Origin: a virus
Reading direction: 5' to 3' (one strand)
DNA length: 64,000 bases
IMG/VR virus record: IMGVR_UViG_3300024999_000045
Location: 66,450-130,449 of that record
Below, in pieces: positions 6,972 to 13,506 of this stretch (positions within the stretch are counted from its first letter, which is position 1; the number at the start of each line of letters is the position of its first letter). A program made the position numbers and the translations under genes. The notes under the pieces are model-generated. The model had not been told where the DNA came from, did not search any database, and saw only the letters and a list, made by a program, of their open reading frames with translations.

Positions 6972-8117
6972 ATGTCTAAAAAGTATACCATACAAGAAAT
7001 AAAAGATTATTTAAAGATATTTAATTGCAAATTATTAATAGAAGAATATAAAGATGTATTTTCGAAATTAAAAATAGAATGCTCTTGTAAAAATATATTT
7101 TATAGAGGGTTTAAAGACTTTAAATCAAGTGGCGGGACATGTAATATATGTACACAAAAAAATACAAATAATAAAACAAAATTAGATAAAAATATTGTAA
7201 AAAGTACAATTAATAAAATGGGCTATGAATTAAAGTCTTTAGACTATATTAATGCTAATTCAAAAATAGAAATAGAATCATATGAGGGTTATAAATATAA
7301 AGTTGTTTATGGTAGTCTACAACAAAGTCACATTCCAGACGCTTTTTCTATAACTAACCCTTTTTCTATTTATAATATTAATATATGGACAGAAAAAAAT
7401 ATTAAACCGTTTTTATTAATATCCTATAAATTTTTAGGTTCAAATTCAAAATTAACTTGGGCATGTAAAATATGTGGTGAAAACTGGGACGCAACATGGT
7501 CAAGTATTTATTCTAGTAAAAGTGGGTGCCCATATTGTGTTAATCAAAAAGTTAGTAAAAATAATAATTTATCAATTACTCACCCAAATTTATTAGAAGA
7601 GTGGCATTATACTAAAAATAAAAAGTCACCAAATTTATATACTCATGGTAGTGATTCTATAGTGTGGTGGGAGTGTAATACTTGTAGGTTTGAATGGAAA
7701 GCACGAATTGCCAACAGGACTAATGGGCGAAATTGCCCAAATTGTATGTTGTCTAAAGGTGAATTAAAAATATATGAATATTTAAAGAAAAATAATATCA
7801 ATTTTGAACAACAATATGAGTTTAATGATTTATTATCAGAACTAGGAAATCCACTAAAATTTGATTTTGTTATATTTAATAATAATGATAACATTAGCTG
7901 CTTAATCGAATTCGATGGAATACAACATTTTAAACCCGTAGACTATTTTGGTGGCGAAAAAGGGTTTATGGCACAACAAATCAGTGATGAAAGTAAAAAT
8001 GAGTATTGCAAAAACAACAATATTAAACTTAAAAGAATATCTTATTTAGAATTTGATAATATTGAAGAAATATTAACATACTTAATAAAAGAGTGTAATA
8101 TGCCTTGGATAAAATAA
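6972..8117 (+). CDS. Free-standing putative homing endonuclease (zinc-ribbon repeats plus C-terminal PD-(D/E)xK/DUF559-like domain)
   Basis: WACKICG..W, CPYC, VWWECNTC, CPNC; SKGE...FDF...IEFDGIQHF. Confidence 0.8.
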   Translation: MSKKYTIQEIKDYLKIFNCKLLIEEYKDVFSKLKIECSCKNIFYRGFKDFKSSGGTCNICTQKNTNNKTKLDKNIVKSTINKMGYELKSLDYINANSKIEIESYEGYKYKVVYGSLQQSHIPDAFSITNPFSIYNINIWTEKNIKPFLLISYKFLGSNSKLTWACKICGENWDATWSSIYSSKSGCPYCVNQKVSKNNNLSITHPNLLEEWHYTKNKKSPNLYTHGSDSIVWWECNTCRFEWKARIANRTNGRNCPNCMLSKGELKIYEYLKKNNINFEQQYEFNDLLSELGNPLKFDFVIFNNNDNISCLIEFDGIQHFKPVDYFGGEKGFMAQQISDESKNEYCKNNNIKLKRISYLEFDNIEEILTYLIKECNMPWIK

Positions 8118-8152
8118 AAACATAAAAACAAAATAAATTTACTCTTTATGTA

Positions 8153-8211
8153 TTGACATTATTTGTTATATAATATATTATATTTATATTGAATATGACA
8201 AATAATGTCAA
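8153..8211 (+). promoter_or_regulatory. sigmaA-type promoter of the agr-like operon with two inverted TGACA-N5-TGTCA-type operator copies
   Basis: TTGACA 8153-8158, 17 bp, TATTAT 8176-8181; 8153-8168 matches the reverse complement of 8196-8211 at 15/16 positions. Confidence 0.6.
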
Positions 8212-8229
8212 CAACAAAGGAGATTCACA

Positions 8230-9555
8230 ATGTTTAAAGAGTTTTTACAGAATTTAGTGGTTAATGTGCCATATATTACATTTATGATTTTAGGTTTTAT
8301 ATTTTTATTTGGATATAGAGATAAATTTTCAAAATCAAAAGTTATAACTTATATAATGATAGGTTCAATTTTAGATAGTGTAATACAAATATATTTAGAG
8401 AAAAACGCTTATATGTTTATCAGCATTTTAATTTCTATAATTTTAATTAGAATTATGTTTAAAATAAACCCATTAGCAACAATTGTATCCTACTTAATTT
8501 TATTTTTTATAGACTTCGTTGTGCAGATAATAATGTATATTATTTTAGCATTAGGTTTTAAACTAGATATTAATATATTTTCACATCAAGTATATTTTAC
8601 CTTATGTTATATAATAGTTTGGGTTTTGGCATTATATAATATTATTAAATCTAATTTTGTAATATTAAATATGCAAAAGTATAATATATTTTCAGATAAA
8701 AAATTTAATAAATTTATTGATGATAATGTAAAAATATTACTAACAACATTTTTAATCTTTATGATAGTAAATTGTATTAATTTATTAGTATATTATTATG
8801 GATTATCAAATCATAAGTCGTTTGAACCATTAACATATCTCACCTTGTTATTTTTTAACACAATTATTTTTGCAACTATGATAATTTGGTTGATAAGTAA
8901 ATTATATTCCTTAAAACAATACCAAATAAAATACAATTTAAGAAAAAAATATTCTAAGAGCATTAAACACTTAATTAAAGGACTAAAATACGAAAAAAGA
9001 ACTTTTTCTAATTATTTAAATGTTATAAATGGATATGTATCATTAGGAAAATGTAATGAAGCTCAAGAATATATACAAAAAATACACAAATCTATTGTTA
9101 CCGATAAAAAAGATGACAAATCTGAAGATGGATTAGATATTATAAATATTATTAATTCAAAAATCATAGCAGCAGAACAAAAAAATATTAATATACAAGT
9201 AAATAATGACGCCAATATGAAAATAAATGCATTCGAAATTGAATATGCTGTTACAATAATTATTGATTTTATATTTAAATATGTTGAAGTATTGAGTATT
9301 AGTAAAAGAAATATTAATGTAAATACTTATTCTGATGACCACAATTATTCCTTAGAGTTTGATTTTACTGGAGAGCAAATACCAGAAAATTATTTATTAG
9401 ATGAAAATGAAGATTTATATATTTCAAAATACATAATCAATACCAATAATGGCAATATGCAACTAACATATGAAAAAAATGATTTCAATTTTTACAACAA
9501 AATAAAAATATTATTTCCTAAAGAAGATGGTGCAAATGAACTTATTAAATATTAA
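8230..9555 (+). CDS. agrC: AgrC-like membrane sensor with degenerate DHp and GHKL domains (predicted pseudokinase)
   Basis: About 6-7 N-terminal TM helices; EKRTFSNYLNVINGY in place of RHD.xNHL.vI.G; eroded N, G1 and G2 boxes; adjacent to agrB and agrD. Confidence 0.75.
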   Translation: MFKEFLQNLVVNVPYITFMILGFIFLFGYRDKFSKSKVITYIMIGSILDSVIQIYLEKNAYMFISILISIILIRIMFKINPLATIVSYLILFFIDFVVQIIMYIILALGFKLDINIFSHQVYFTLCYIIVWVLALYNIIKSNFVILNMQKYNIFSDKKFNKFIDDNVKILLTTFLIFMIVNCINLLVYYYGLSNHKSFEPLTYLTLLFFNTIIFATMIIWLISKLYSLKQYQIKYNLRKKYSKSIKHLIKGLKYEKRTFSNYLNVINGYVSLGKCNEAQEYIQKIHKSIVTDKKDDKSEDGLDIINIINSKIIAAEQKNINIQVNNDANMKINAFEIEYAVTIIIDFIFKYVEVLSISKRNINVNTYSDDHNYSLEFDFTGEQIPENYLLDENEDLYISKYIINTNNGNMQLTYEKNDFNFYNKIKILFPKEDGANELIKY

Positions 9556-10108
9556 ATATTATGCTTTTAGTTTATCAAATTTTATAGCAAAAACAAGAAA
9601 TGAAAGCCATGCAAAAAGATATGAATATTATTATGGCTCATTAATATTATTAGAGACAATATTTCAATTAGTGTTATTTCTGGTAATTGGACTAGCTTTT
9701 AACATTTTAAAAGAAGTTATGATATCTTTATTAGCATTTGGAACTTTAAGGTTTTATGCAGGCGGCTATCATGCTAACACTTTTAAAAAATGCACTCTAT
9801 TTAGTCTAGTTATTATCTTATCTTCAGTATTTTTATCACAATATATATTGAATTTTATGAATATTATATTGATAATTATTTCCATTGTAGTATTATATAT
9901 TTATGCTCCAACCGATCATAAAAACAAGCCAATAACAAATGAAGCTCAGAGAAGTAAATTTAAGATTATATCTATTTTTATATTCGTTATTTGGATACTG
10001 CTAGGCACATTTTTATTAAAAGACTATTCCTTACTAATTAATATATCGTTGCTTTTTGAAAGTTTAAGTTTAATTAAGGTTTCAACCATGCCGAAATTTG
10101 GCAAATAA
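9527..10108 (+). CDS. agrB: Accessory gene regulator B (AIP-processing membrane peptidase)
   Basis: LRFYAGGYHANTFKKC (RxxxGGxH...C catalytic motif) and YAPTDHKNKPI; start could be 9536. Confidence 0.93.
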   Translation: MVQMNLLNIKYYAFSLSNFIAKTRNESHAKRYEYYYGSLILLETIFQLVLFLVIGLAFNILKEVMISLLAFGTLRFYAGGYHANTFKKCTLFSLVIILSSVFLSQYILNFMNIILIIISIVVLYIYAPTDHKNKPITNEAQRSKFKIISIFIFVIWILLGTFLLKDYSLLINISLLFESLSLIKVSTMPKFGK

Positions 10109-10128
10109 CATATAAGGAGGAACTAAAA

Positions 10129-10251
10129 ATGTTAATTTTTCTAGCTGATGTTTTAAGTGCGTTATTATCTGCCGTATCAACTCTTGATATGTCTATAATG
10201 TCACCTGTAATTATCCACCAACCAAAAGCACCAAAATCTTTAATTAAGTAA
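10129..10251 (+). CDS. agrD: AgrD autoinducing-peptide precursor (40 aa), not in the ORF track
   Basis: MLIFLADVLSALLSAVSTLDMSIMSPVIIHQPKAPKSLIK; AGGAGG RBS; clostridial AgrD tail HQPxxPxxL; follows agrB. Confidence 0.9.
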   Translation: MLIFLADVLSALLSAVSTLDMSIMSPVIIHQPKAPKSLIK

Positions 10252-10310
10252 TATGAATTAAACTCGACATTATAAGAAGTTTGACATAATAATAAGAAGT
10301 TTGTACATAG

Positions 10311-10344
10311 CACAAGCTCATTATATAATTTTAATGAGCTTGTG
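10311..10344 (+). terminator. Hairpin terminator after agrD
   Basis: CACAAGCTCATTA / TAATGAGCTTGTG 13-bp stem. Confidence 0.7.
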
Positions 10345-10411
10345 ATTACTTCTTAAATAACATAAACATAATAACGTATAATATAAAATTTACATATATA
10401 TGGAGGTAATT

Positions 10412-11092
10412 ATGAAAGGTAAAGTAATTGTTTTAGAATCACCAGACGGTTGTGGTAAAGCAACGCAAACAAAATTACTATATGATAAATTAAAATCTAA
10501 AGGCTATAATGTAATGCATTTAGATTATCCAAGATATAGTATGCCATCTTGTTTATTAGTGGAATCATATTTAAACGGTGAATTTGGTACTAATGCTCAA
10601 GAGATTAGTCCTTATATGGCGTCAAGTTTTTATGCAATAGACAGATATATAAGTCATCTAGTTGAATGGAAAGAATTTTATGATAATGGTGGAATTATGA
10701 TTTTCGACCGCTATTCTAGCAGCAATATTTTACACCAAACAAGCAAAATCAAAGATAAAGTTGAAAAATATAAACTTATTAATTGGTTGGAACAACTAGA
10801 ATTTGAAACATATTCATTGCCTAGACCTGATGTGGTGTTCTATTTAAATATGCCAATTGAACAAAGTATTAAACTTATGGAGAACAGAAAGAACAAAATT
10901 AATGGTGAAGATAAAAAAGATATCCATGAATCAGATAAACAACATTTAATTGATGCTCATGAGAATGCTACGGATATTATTAATATATACGAATGGACTG
11001 TAATTGATTGTATGGATAGGGATAAGAAACTTAAAAGCATTGATGATATACATGAAGAAATTTATGAATTGGCGGTTAGTTATTTAGAATAG
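10412..11092 (+). CDS. tmk: Thymidylate kinase
   Basis: P-loop ESPDGCGKATQ, DRY and PDVVFYL motifs. Confidence 0.92.
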   Translation: MKGKVIVLESPDGCGKATQTKLLYDKLKSKGYNVMHLDYPRYSMPSCLLVESYLNGEFGTNAQEISPYMASSFYAIDRYISHLVEWKEFYDNGGIMIFDRYSSSNILHQTSKIKDKVEKYKLINWLEQLEFETYSLPRPDVVFYLNMPIEQSIKLMENRKNKINGEDKKDIHESDKQHLIDAHENATDIINIYEWTVIDCMDRDKKLKSIDDIHEEIYELAVSYLE

Positions 11093-11194
11093 CATTAAAG
11101 TATAAACATAATAATTATTATTTATATATATCAACAGACATATTTAAAGAGAAAATGAATATAGTTTAAAAACTATTAATAAAGGAGATCAATA

Positions 11195-11413
11195 ATGAAA
11201 GTTGAAAATATAATATTGGAAGGTAAAAATACATATTTAATTTGGGTTAATAATCAAGAAAAAAACCTACCAAATATCCAAGATGATATAAATAAATATA
11301 AAAACATAAACACGAGGGTTGTTGTTTTTTATTCTGGTGATAAATATACCTTGCAAGAATCAACACAAAAACTAATAGAAGGATTAAACAACAATATTAC
11401 AAGTATATTTTAA
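11195..11413 (+). CDS. Small hypothetical protein directly upstream of the integrase
   Basis: ORF track; AAGGAG RBS. Confidence 0.6.
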   Translation: MKVENIILEGKNTYLIWVNNQEKNLPNIQDDINKYKNINTRVVVFYSGDKYTLQESTQKLIEGLNNNITSIF

Positions 11414-11485
11414 ATATACTTGTTTTTTTTACTTAAATTGGATATAATACTTTATTATAACACACTATACAAAGGAGTTACTGAG

Positions 11486-13048
11486 ATGGAAAATGCAGTT
11501 GGATATATTAGATTAAGTAGGGACGAAGATAAACAAAATTATAGTTCAATTATTAATCAAAAAAATATAATTATTGATTATTGTGAAAAAAATAACATTA
11601 AAATTATTGATTTTTATATTGATGATAATTATAGTGGATATACATTTGAAAGACCCTCTTTTAAAAAAATGTTATTAGATTTAGAAAATAAAAATATTGA
11701 CGTGATAATAGCGAAAGACCTTTCTAGAATTGGCAGACATAATGCAAGAACATTATTATTTTTAGAGTCAATAACAGAATTAAATAAAAATATTATTTTA
11801 ATTGATGAACAAAGCGGTGGATATAATTTAAAAAAAGACGACGATAGTATGATAGGAATCAAAACATGGGTAAATGAAATGTATGTAAAAGATATTTCAA
11901 AAAAAATAAGAAGTAGTTTTACATCTAAACAAAAAGAAGGAACTTTGGTTTTTAAGGCACCATTTGGATATAAAAAAGACAAAATAAGTAAATCAGATTT
12001 ACTTATAGACGAAGAAACATCTCAATATGTAAAATTAATTTTTGAGCTATATCTTCAAGGAAATGGTTATATTAAAATATGTAATATTTTAAATGATAAA
12101 AATATACCAACACCCTCTATAGTACAACAAAGAGATTTGTCTAATAACGGGAAAATATTTAAGAATAAGGTTTCTAAAATATGGCAGTCCCATCATATTC
12201 AAAGAATTATTAAAGACGATGTATATACGGGTAGTTTAAGGTGTGGAAAAACAAGAAAACAGGCAATTAAAGGTAAAACAATTTATCAAGATAAAGATCT
12301 TCATATTTTACACGAAAACCATCACGAGCCAATAATTTCTTTAGACGACTTTTCTATGGCACAAGATGTTAAAAATAAAAGAAATAAAACTCATTATAAA
12401 GGTGGGTCTAAAAATACGTATATGTTTTCTGGATTTGTTTTTTGTAATGATTGTGGTGGATATATGATTGGAAGGACATATAAAAATGGTGTAAAATATT
12501 ATGAATGTGGTAAATATAGTAAATATGGCCTTAAACAATGTACTACACATTATATAAAAGAAACATTGCTTATTAATTTGTTTAAAATATATTTACAAAA
12601 AGTAAAAAACCAAATTGAAGAATTTATAAAAGATATTAATATTGAAAATCATGAAAAAGACATAAATGAAATAATTAAAACACTTAAAAATGAATATATA
12701 ATTAAAAAAGAAGAATTAAAGACAATATTATCTGAAAAAATAAAAGCATTAATAAATGAAAAAAAAGACGAATATAAAGATATAGTAGAACAAAGTTATA
12801 AAGAAATTGAAGAAGAAAAAAAAGAAGAAATTAATTTTATATCAAATAGATTAAATAAACTTAATAACACAAAAGATGATGATATTTATATTAAAACTAA
12901 AAATTCAATTGATTTATATTCCAATTTAATTGAATCTAATAATTTTAAAAAAAAGGAATTAGAATTGATTTTAGATAAAATAATGGTTAACCATCAAAGA
13001 GATGTAGATATAAATTTAATATCAAATATTAATGATTTTATTGGGTAG
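11486..13048 (+). CDS. Large serine recombinase (phage integrase)
   Basis: YIRLSR catalytic Ser, DDNYSG...RPSF, DLSRIGR, recombinase domain, zinc ribbon (CNDCG...C...C), coiled coil; start after AAGGAG. Confidence 0.95.
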   Translation: MENAVGYIRLSRDEDKQNYSSIINQKNIIIDYCEKNNIKIIDFYIDDNYSGYTFERPSFKKMLLDLENKNIDVIIAKDLSRIGRHNARTLLFLESITELNKNIILIDEQSGGYNLKKDDDSMIGIKTWVNEMYVKDISKKIRSSFTSKQKEGTLVFKAPFGYKKDKISKSDLLIDEETSQYVKLIFELYLQGNGYIKICNILNDKNIPTPSIVQQRDLSNNGKIFKNKVSKIWQSHHIQRIIKDDVYTGSLRCGKTRKQAIKGKTIYQDKDLHILHENHHEPIISLDDFSMAQDVKNKRNKTHYKGGSKNTYMFSGFVFCNDCGGYMIGRTYKNGVKYYECGKYSKYGLKQCTTHYIKETLLINLFKIYLQKVKNQIEEFIKDINIENHEKDINEIIKTLKNEYIIKKEELKTILSEKIKALINEKKDEYKDIVEQSYKEIEEEKKEEINFISNRLNKLNNTKDDDIYIKTKNSIDLYSNLIESNNFKKKELELILDKIMVNHQRDVDINLISNINDFIG

Positions 13049-13141: not shown

Positions 13142-13170
13142 TATATAATACCATAAAAGGAGTGACCCAT

Positions 13171-13506
13171 ATGTTATTTAAATCATTACTTAAATGTTCA
13201 AATTGCAACTATACATTCAGAGCAAGGAAAGAACGCAATCATATAAAATATCGCTGTAGTAATAGATTAAAAAATGGAATAAATTCTTGTTCAAATGACA
13301 GCGTAATAACTGAAGAAGAACTTATTTACCATACAAAAAAACAATTTGAGTTATATGAGATAGATTTTAACTTAGATAATGAATATTTAAAAACTGTAAT
13401 TAAAGATATTATAGTTCAACCAAATAATAATTATATGATTAATTATAAAAACAAATCATTTGACTCAACAATAATATCTGACACTAAGATTTATTGGGGA
13501 AATTGA
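13171..13506 (+). CDS. Stand-alone recombinase zinc-ribbon domain protein (candidate directionality factor)
   Basis: LFKSLLKCSNCN...YRCSNR...SC resembles the integrase zinc ribbon; no catalytic domain. Confidence 0.7.
   Translation: MLFKSLLKCSNCNYTFRARKERNHIKYRCSNRLKNGINSCSNDSVITEEELIYHTKKQFELYEIDFNLDNEYLKTVIKDIIVQPNNNYMINYKNKSFDSTIISDTKIYWGN

Follow-up and report, generated by a model that had tools for sequence, protein, structure and literature searches.

What can a receptor of the AgrC type still do for a phage once it has lost the chemistry of a kinase, and on which protein would it act? The question is raised by an agr-like operon, encoding an AgrC-derived receptor, the peptidase/cyclase AgrB and the peptide precursor AgrD, in a stretch of 64,000 nucleotides (hereafter the window) that spans bases 66450-130449 of the 130,449-base linear IMG/VR virus record IMGVR_UViG_3300024999_000045. 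CheckV estimates the completeness of this record at 69%. An earlier sequence-only reading of the window had described the receptor as a predicted pseudokinase in a system without a response regulator, and had suggested that it might pair with a host kinase, sequester the host regulator AgrA or bind a phage regulator, the last giving an arbitrium-like signal. The receptor analysed here is well supported as a pseudokinase, and probably a maintained one, and the phage carries an intact LytTR regulator of its own, outside the window. We propose, with roughly even chances of being right, that this phage agr system relies on a peptide-gated pseudokinase that signals by binding, with the phage LytTR regulator as its likeliest partner, and that it couples the peptide to lysis–lysogeny.

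The receptor has lost the catalytic residues of a histidine kinase

A HMMER pass with the receptor against 1.84 billion representative proteins returned 56 matches, and the column counts given below come from an alignment (A3) of 49 receptor homologues. The only Pfam domain recognized in the receptor is the DHp model SPOB_a, at 29.4 bits against a cut-off of 28.1, and HATPase models found no match in the receptor or elsewhere in the 130-kb record, even at E<=10. The nearest full-length relatives (P0003, P0004 and P0005; 24–31% identity) are conventional kinases that carry the domains SPOB_a, HATPase_c and HATPase_c_5, and in them the motifs QKHGFINH, IIDNAFEA, N[TS]GK, FEEGFTTK and DHGFGLY can be read.

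The H box of the receptor reads EKRTFSNYL, placing Arg (R257) in the column of the phosphorylated His, which holds His in 46 of the 49 homologues and Arg in two. R257 is encoded by AGA, which differs from both His codons (CAT and CAC) at all three positions. The adjoining column 258 holds Thr where 44 of the 49 have Asp or Glu, and column 262 holds Tyr where 43 have His, while the Asn four residues after the His position (H+4; N261, Asn in 41/49) is retained. Both Asn residues of the N box, which reads IIIDFIF, are replaced, by Ile at position 343 (Asn in 43/49) and by Phe at position 347 (Asn in 45/49). The G1 box reads FTGEQI at the place of N[TS]GK in the nearest kinases, and an in-frame deletion of ~16 residues has taken away the F box and the ATP lid, the segment running from FEEGFTTK to DHGFG in those kinases. 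The replacement of the phospho-His by Arg, the retention of the H+4 Asn and the loss of the N box, G1 and lid had all been claimed from the sequence alone, and the alignment bears them out.

The same reading had named an alternative conserved His among the findings that would speak against its call. Such a residue was looked for at the two candidate positions, and no conserved substitute was found: position 247 is mostly Glu in the homologues and position 286 is variable, so that neither His247 nor His286 qualifies as a conserved alternative. Weak TPR and PPR matches over residues 236–287 were set aside as helical-hairpin look-alikes. The loss of these motifs presumably leaves the receptor unable to bind ATP or to accept a phosphoryl group at the usual position.

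The fold and the reading frame have been kept

In the AlphaFold2 model of the receptor (mean predicted local distance difference test score 86.2), 6–7 membrane helices (residues 2–194) are followed by a DHp hairpin (200–294) and a catalytic-like alpha/beta domain (301–432). The top Foldseek match is the cytoplasmic domain of Staphylococcus aureus AgrC (6e95). Superposed with VIA-align, the catalytic-like domain matches kinase catalytic domains at Z 15–16, with a root-mean-square deviation of ~2 Å over ~125 residues; the pseudokinase DivL (Z 16.2) is among the structures tied at the top, and AgrC (4bxi) scores Z 15.1. Residues 1–225 align with the membrane domain of P0003, P0004 and P0005, and identity to these nearest kinases is even along the protein, at 18–27% in the membrane domain, 26–36% in DHp and 28–35% in the catalytic-like domain, so that the dead domain has not collapsed. 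The fold-defining residues Y281, A315, L396 and G408, conserved in the homologues, are retained as well.

At a G+C content of 20%, the probability that a frame of 441 codons stays open by chance is ~1e-21, and for the catalytic-like part alone it is 1e-7; the other five frames contain 15–60 stops. Loss of the catalytic positions with retention of fold and frame is the pattern of a pseudoenzyme. The improbably open frame and the retained fold therefore favour, with indirect support for selection, a maintained pseudokinase over debris; the evidence points away from gene decay. The pseudokinase call of the sequence-only reading thus stands, with all catalytic positions lost and both fold and reading frame kept.

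All further copies of the receptor that were found are identical. The same protein occurs on six contigs, the longest of 134,554 bases, and positions 8100-10400 of the window show zero base differences among contigs from four runs of two studies (groundwater and sediment metagenomes), one of which is possibly the window's own source, its top-ranked run holding all sampled words. Small indels at 8757-8767 came from one 152-base contig of low depth and were disregarded. Two shorter proteins (P0001 and P0002) that resembled a split receptor gene derive from contigs of 937 and 636 bases, and, with the full protein present on six contigs, they give no evidence of a frameshift. The next relatives, at ~30% identity, are normal kinases. 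A word-index search with the receptor gave no match, nor did blastn and tblastn searches of 50,697 phage records in which the operon and the receptor served as queries; six IMG/VR scans, with the receptor, the kinase alignment A2, the regulator, AgrB, P0004 and P0059, returned no relatives, and the ESM Atlas yielded kinase-family neighbours only.

An intact LytTR regulator adjoins an SPbeta-type repression module

The sequence-only reading had noted that no response regulator occurs in the window. This is true of the window, yet the phage record encodes one 60 kb upstream of the operon, and the premise of a regulator-less system is consequently wrong for the phage as a whole. The protein combines a receiver with a LytTR domain (Table 1), and its receiver residues D15, D16, D63, T94 and K114 are intact, in columns that are invariant or nearly so. 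Among GenBank phages, receiver-LytTR regulators are rare and distant, with partial matches of <=40% identity in 16 of 50,697 records.

The regulator gene directly follows homologues of YopP, YopQ and MrpR (YopR). Matches to the repression-module profiles MrpR_N_CB (9.2e-15), phrog_5830 (1.2e-60) and phrog_5732 (2e-88) were obtained here, and the YopP, YopQ and YopR proteins of phage phi3T match colinearly (1.5e-17, 4.3e-42 and 4.5e-25, respectively). By these similarities, the YopP/YopQ/MrpR block is a repression module of the SPbeta type. AimR of phi3T has no match in the 130-kb record, which is possibly short by a few kb, the best E value being 4.1. The idea of an arbitrium-like signal finds circumstantial support in the SPbeta-type YopP/Q/R homologues together with the missing AimR match. 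Since the regulator lies beside MrpR and no AimR match was found, control of lysis–lysogeny appears to be the likeliest output of the system. Moreover, because the phage possesses an intact regulator of its own, binding of a phage regulator now leads among the suggestions of the sequence-only reading, and sequestration of host AgrA becomes secondary.

In the gap that separates the mrpR-like gene from the regulator gene lies a 19-bp perfect palindrome (L084:8217-8259; G000:C1:13216-13258 in record coordinates), with a tandem TTATAATAAA repeat and an extended -10 element (TGGTATAAT) behind it. With these three elements in front of it, the regulator seems to own a promoter.

Receptor and regulator probably descend from one locus, and the His-to-Arg change has recurred

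A 2.8-kb metagenome contig (L085; 718-2803) carries an mreB-like gene and a 243-amino-acid LytTR regulator encoded directly upstream of a normal AgrC-like kinase. The kinase belongs to the nearest clade of the phage receptor and is among its closest relatives. Of all matches obtained for the phage regulator, this L085 protein scores highest, at 128 bits, against 93.6 bits for the top match of a word search, not exhaustive, of 5.8 billion proteins. As the best match of the regulator adjoins a kinase of the clade nearest to the receptor, the pair has probably co-descended. The receptor and the regulator most likely derive, on this sequence evidence, from a single locus of the regulator-kinase-agrB-agrD type and would have become separated later, in the phage.

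Arg in the His column is also present in two of the hits, P0008 and P0034. A profile search gathered six Arg-for-His AgrC-like proteins (P0008, P0059, P0096, P0097, P0098 and P0099), which share 27–37% mutual identity and stem from metagenomes, one of them a metagenome-assembled genome labelled Bacillota. Their common motif is Arg-Glu-Phe/Tyr-Arg-Asn-x-Leu-Gln-Val, in which the H+4 Asn is kept; their N box is degenerate, and no HATPase match above the cut-off was found in any of the six. In a maximum-likelihood tree, this family stands on a long branch as a clade with 100/100 support. The phage receptor branches among normal kinases, although its exact sister is unsure, as it pairs with the long-branch protein P0011 at 89/90. 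Its His-to-Arg change is therefore independent of that of the family. As far as the tree and alignment go, the change arose at least twice and is deeply conserved in one lineage.

The operon, its signal and its surroundings

The sequence-only reading placed agrC-like, agrB and agrD genes in one operon about 1.2 kb upstream of the integrase. Three plus-strand open reading frames with matches to PF04647 and TIGR04223 agree with this description (Table 1), and the integrase starts 1.17 kb past agrD. The receptor gene and agrB overlap by 29 nt. Going by pattern matches for its promoter and terminator, the region 8230-10251 is a single operon.

Table 1. Features of the agr operon, its flanks and the regulator locus (positions refer to the window, except those prefixed G000:C1, which refer to the record)
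Feature	Positions	Strand	Description
Receiver-LytTR response regulator	G000:C1:13340-14071		Outside the window; 60 kb before the operon; PF00072 5.6e-19, PF04397 4.1e-17
Sigma-A-like promoter	8153-8181	+	TTGACA-17 nt-TATTAT; 11/12 consensus positions; top match in 7900-11500; pattern only
Perfect 14-nt inverted repeat	8153-8212	n/a	TTGACATTATTTGT at 8153-8166 and ACAAATAATGTCAA at 8199-8212; brackets the -10 region and leader start
AgrC-derived receptor gene	8230-9555	+	Open reading frame, 441 amino acids
AgrB peptidase/cyclase gene	9527-10108	+	Open reading frame, 193 amino acids; PF04647 1.3e-38, NF002210 2.1e-18
AgrD precursor gene	10129-10251	+	Open reading frame, 40 amino acids; TIGR04223 1.7e-7
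Two 15-nt direct repeats	10269-10303	+	ATTATAAGAAGTTTG and ATAATAAGAAGTTTG, 20 nt start-to-start; between agrD stop and terminator
Terminator-like hairpin	10311-10344	+	13-bp stem, ends the operon; sole terminator-like site in 7900-11500
Thymidylate kinase gene	10400-11092	+	PF02223 1.3e-17; between operon and integrase
Large serine recombinase (integrase)	11420-13048	+	Resolvase 9.2e-24, Recombinase 6.8e-20, Zn_ribbon_recom 4.4e-13

AgrB retains its catalytic motif, RFYAGGYHANTFKKC (GGYHANTFKKC), as had been claimed. The catalytic His and Cys stand 7 residues apart and presumably correspond to H77 and C84 of S. aureus AgrB. In 37 of 160 fetched loci, AgrB is encoded within 1.5 kb of the kinase, mostly just downstream of it as in the phage, and a search with AgrB against the 50,697 phage records gave one distant Ruminococcus phage match only. 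AgrD reaches 31.2 bits with TIGR04223 (cut-off 19). It contains no Cys, and Ser25-Pro-Val-Ile-Ile stands directly before HQPKAPKSL. We take these residues, by the spacing of S. aureus AgrD, to form a five-residue Ser lactone ring; the mature peptide is, on that analogy of spacing, probably a Ser lactone ending SPVII.

Two repeat elements flank the genes. The inverted repeat at the promoter, of which no second copy was found anywhere in the 130-kb record, may serve as an operator or form a hairpin in the leader. Behind agrD, the paired occurrence of the 12-nt core of the direct repeats is unique in the record, and their period resembles that of the boxes bound by LytTR regulators, which makes them a candidate LytTR-type box. 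They could represent the single target of the regulator, sited like the AimR site after aimP. A TTGACA hexamer overlaps these repeats.

Upstream of the operon are a ligase, a ThyX-like gene, a nucleotidase, RusA and an HNH endonuclease, and downstream of it the thymidylate kinase and the large serine recombinase are followed by lysis and structural genes on the opposite strand. The HNH/homing endonuclease gene (6972-8117; phrog_559, 1.5e-62) lies immediately 5' of the operon and may bear on the route by which the cassette arrived. No boundary palindromes of the TAAAA-N6-TTTYAT type flank the operon. Just past the integrase, an open reading frame of 114 amino acids (13162-13506) has the recombinase zinc-ribbon domain as its sole match (8.1e-10); it encodes either part of a second serine recombinase or a small protein with an accessory role. 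Elsewhere in the record, and by eye only, a 404-amino-acid open reading frame a few kb before the YopP-MrpR block (G000:C1:5559-6773) has the look of a TnpB/OrfB-type transposon protein, and two frames at G000:C1:17078-18853, outside the window, resemble ClpX and a YyaC-type sporulation protease.

Proposed mechanism and alternatives

In the mechanism that we favour, AgrB would turn AgrD into a small cyclic peptide, which would build up as more cells become infected or lysogenic and be sensed by the conserved membrane domain of the receptor. The dead kinase would then act through binding, without phosphotransfer. The phosphate on the regulator could come from a host kinase or from acetyl phosphate; as the receiver is intact, the donor would be one that the phage record does not encode. 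The receptor might hold, release or dephosphorylate the regulator, with the Arg at the His position, the place that the phosphoryl group would occupy, facing its phospho-Asp. In HisKA kinases, the H+4 Asn is the phosphatase position, a role that we extrapolate to the phage receptor. Peptide level would in this way be coupled to the lysis–lysogeny module, in the place that arbitrium holds in SPbeta and phi3T. Peptide sensing, the choice of partner, the direction of control and the lysis–lysogeny output are all steps that we infer. A broader and doubtful proposal is that SPbeta-like phages of anaerobic Bacillota swapped arbitrium for agr-derived counting, in which a peptide-gated dead kinase binds a phosphorylatable LytTR regulator and its Arg contacts the phospho-Asp, the same Arg solution having arisen independently in an AgrC-like family. 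If it were true, these proteins would form a new class of membrane receptor for peptides, one that does not write the phosphorylation of a regulator but reads or buffers it.

Several observations weigh against the favoured mechanism. The receptor and regulator genes lie 60 kb from each other and do not share a transcript, and a kinase could lie in unseen sequence, considering that the record comprises 130,449 bases at 69% completeness and that the longest contig reaches 134,554 bases. With zero variation among the copies, purifying selection is not directly measurable, and the G+C of the operon, at 0.20 the minimum of the region, fits drift or recent import. The predicted complex of a dimer of receptor residues 225–441 with the receiver of the regulator scored 0.27 against a mark of 0.32 and was not used either way.

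The low G+C, lowest in the receptor gene, also suits a different account, in which the receptor is dead cargo, only AgrB and AgrD matter, and a host kinase reads the peptide and phosphorylates the phage regulator. Loci with agrBD only do occur in clostridia; every kinase motif of the receptor is gone, no relative of 30–100% identity shows its state conserved, and the intact receiver requires a real kinase, of which none was detected in the phage record. We nevertheless regard this account as unlikely: the frame has stayed open over all its codons at 20% G+C and the deletion is in frame, the structural residues are retained with identity even across the domains, and the receptor gene overlaps agrB as if the two were translationally coupled. 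In addition, the Arg-for-His state is kept by an independent lineage at 27–37% identity, and can therefore be stable and useful. A residual catalytic role, with the receptor still serving as a kinase or phosphotransfer protein through unconventional residues such as His247 or His286 and ATP supplied in trans by a host kinase, appears highly improbable. It draws on the two His residues of the DHp hairpin and on the SPOB_a family being named for the sensor-kinase domain of Spo0B type, Spo0B itself being a phosphotransferase whose catalytic-like domain does not bind ATP; neither His is conserved in the homologues, however, and the receptor lacks the G1 residue, the lid and the two Asn residues that bind Mg/ATP.

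A receptor that signals by binding could also be turned on the host, as a jammer or decoy that forms heterodimers with a host AgrC-type kinase or serves as a sink for host peptide or AgrA. The phage peptide may then cross-inhibit host receptors, the aim being to rewire host quorum sensing and not to count phages. The dimerization hairpin of DHp is retained and confidently modelled, and the best structural neighbours include RetS and DivL, both of which work on other kinases. The ChrS pseudokinase works through heterodimers with HrrS (PMC9491836), and host-directed effects were proposed by the authors of the phiCDHM1 study too (PMC3901668). To a pure jammer of the host, however, an intact phage regulator that shares the ancestry of the receptor would be superfluous, and neither 185,579 species genomes nor the metagenome scan yielded a relative closer than 42% to the nearest kinase clade; a role of this kind is, in our judgement, improbable.

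Comparison with known systems

The Clostridioides difficile phage phiCDHM1 carries an agr3 locus of the order agrC-agrB-agrD, with a HATPase_c-bearing AgrC and without a regulator (PMC3901668). The present system resembles it in being phage-borne, in the order receptor-AgrB-AgrD, in a G+C below that of the rest of the phage and in the PxxP of AgrD. It differs in that the kinase chemistry is gone and that the phage has its own LytTR regulator. No similarity to the phiCDHM1 receptor was detectable by tblastn of our receptor against the 50,697 phage records. A 2025 review likewise describes agr phages without AgrA (PMC11945551). The cellular AgrC-like kinases of Bacillota (P0003, P0004, P0005 and that of L085) match the receptor over its full length at 24–31% identity and share its membrane domain, its DHp and its catalytic fold; unlike the receptor, they keep all catalytic motifs.

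The arbitrium system (AimR-AimP-AimX) of SPbeta and phi3T is likewise a peptide signal of a large temperate phage of the SPbeta type with a YopP/YopQ/MrpR module, and there, as here, the regulator gene adjoins that module. In the phage studied here, by contrast, AimR has no match, the peptide is processed by AgrB and is probably cyclic, sensing is predicted to take place at the membrane and not after import, and the genes are located at two sites 60 kb apart.

Histidine pseudokinases are known in bacteria, among them DivL of Caulobacter (PMC4211667) and an evolved frameshift variant of ChrS, which acts through heterodimers and cross-phosphorylation (PMC9491836). They share with the phage receptor a kinase fold without kinase chemistry, and their signalling works through binding, either to a response regulator or to a second kinase. 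DivL, however, has Tyr at the His position, is cytoplasmic and contains PAS domains, whereas the phage receptor has Arg, the membrane domain of a peptide receptor and a viral origin. The Arg-for-His family agrees with the receptor in architecture, in the Arg that fills the phospho-His column, in the H+4 Asn and in having no HATPase match; it forms a separate clade. Among the listed papers that mention AgrC together with pseudokinases, which concern DivL, phosphorelays in general or an animal virus, none looks, judged by titles and abstracts, to deal with an AgrC-type pseudokinase. The receptor offers a clean natural case in which the kinase that receives a peptide has become a pseudokinase. 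The existence of the independent family suggests a recurring design and not an accident.

Phage agr genes have been known since phiCDHM1, and here the full four-part set of signal, maturase, receptor and regulator is present in one phage. Because the regulator is placed next to the master repressor, in a type of phage that is well understood, the output lends itself to direct testing. If the receptor gates the regulator by binding, the system would represent a new wiring of two-component signalling and, next to arbitrium, a second and unrelated route to communication between phages.

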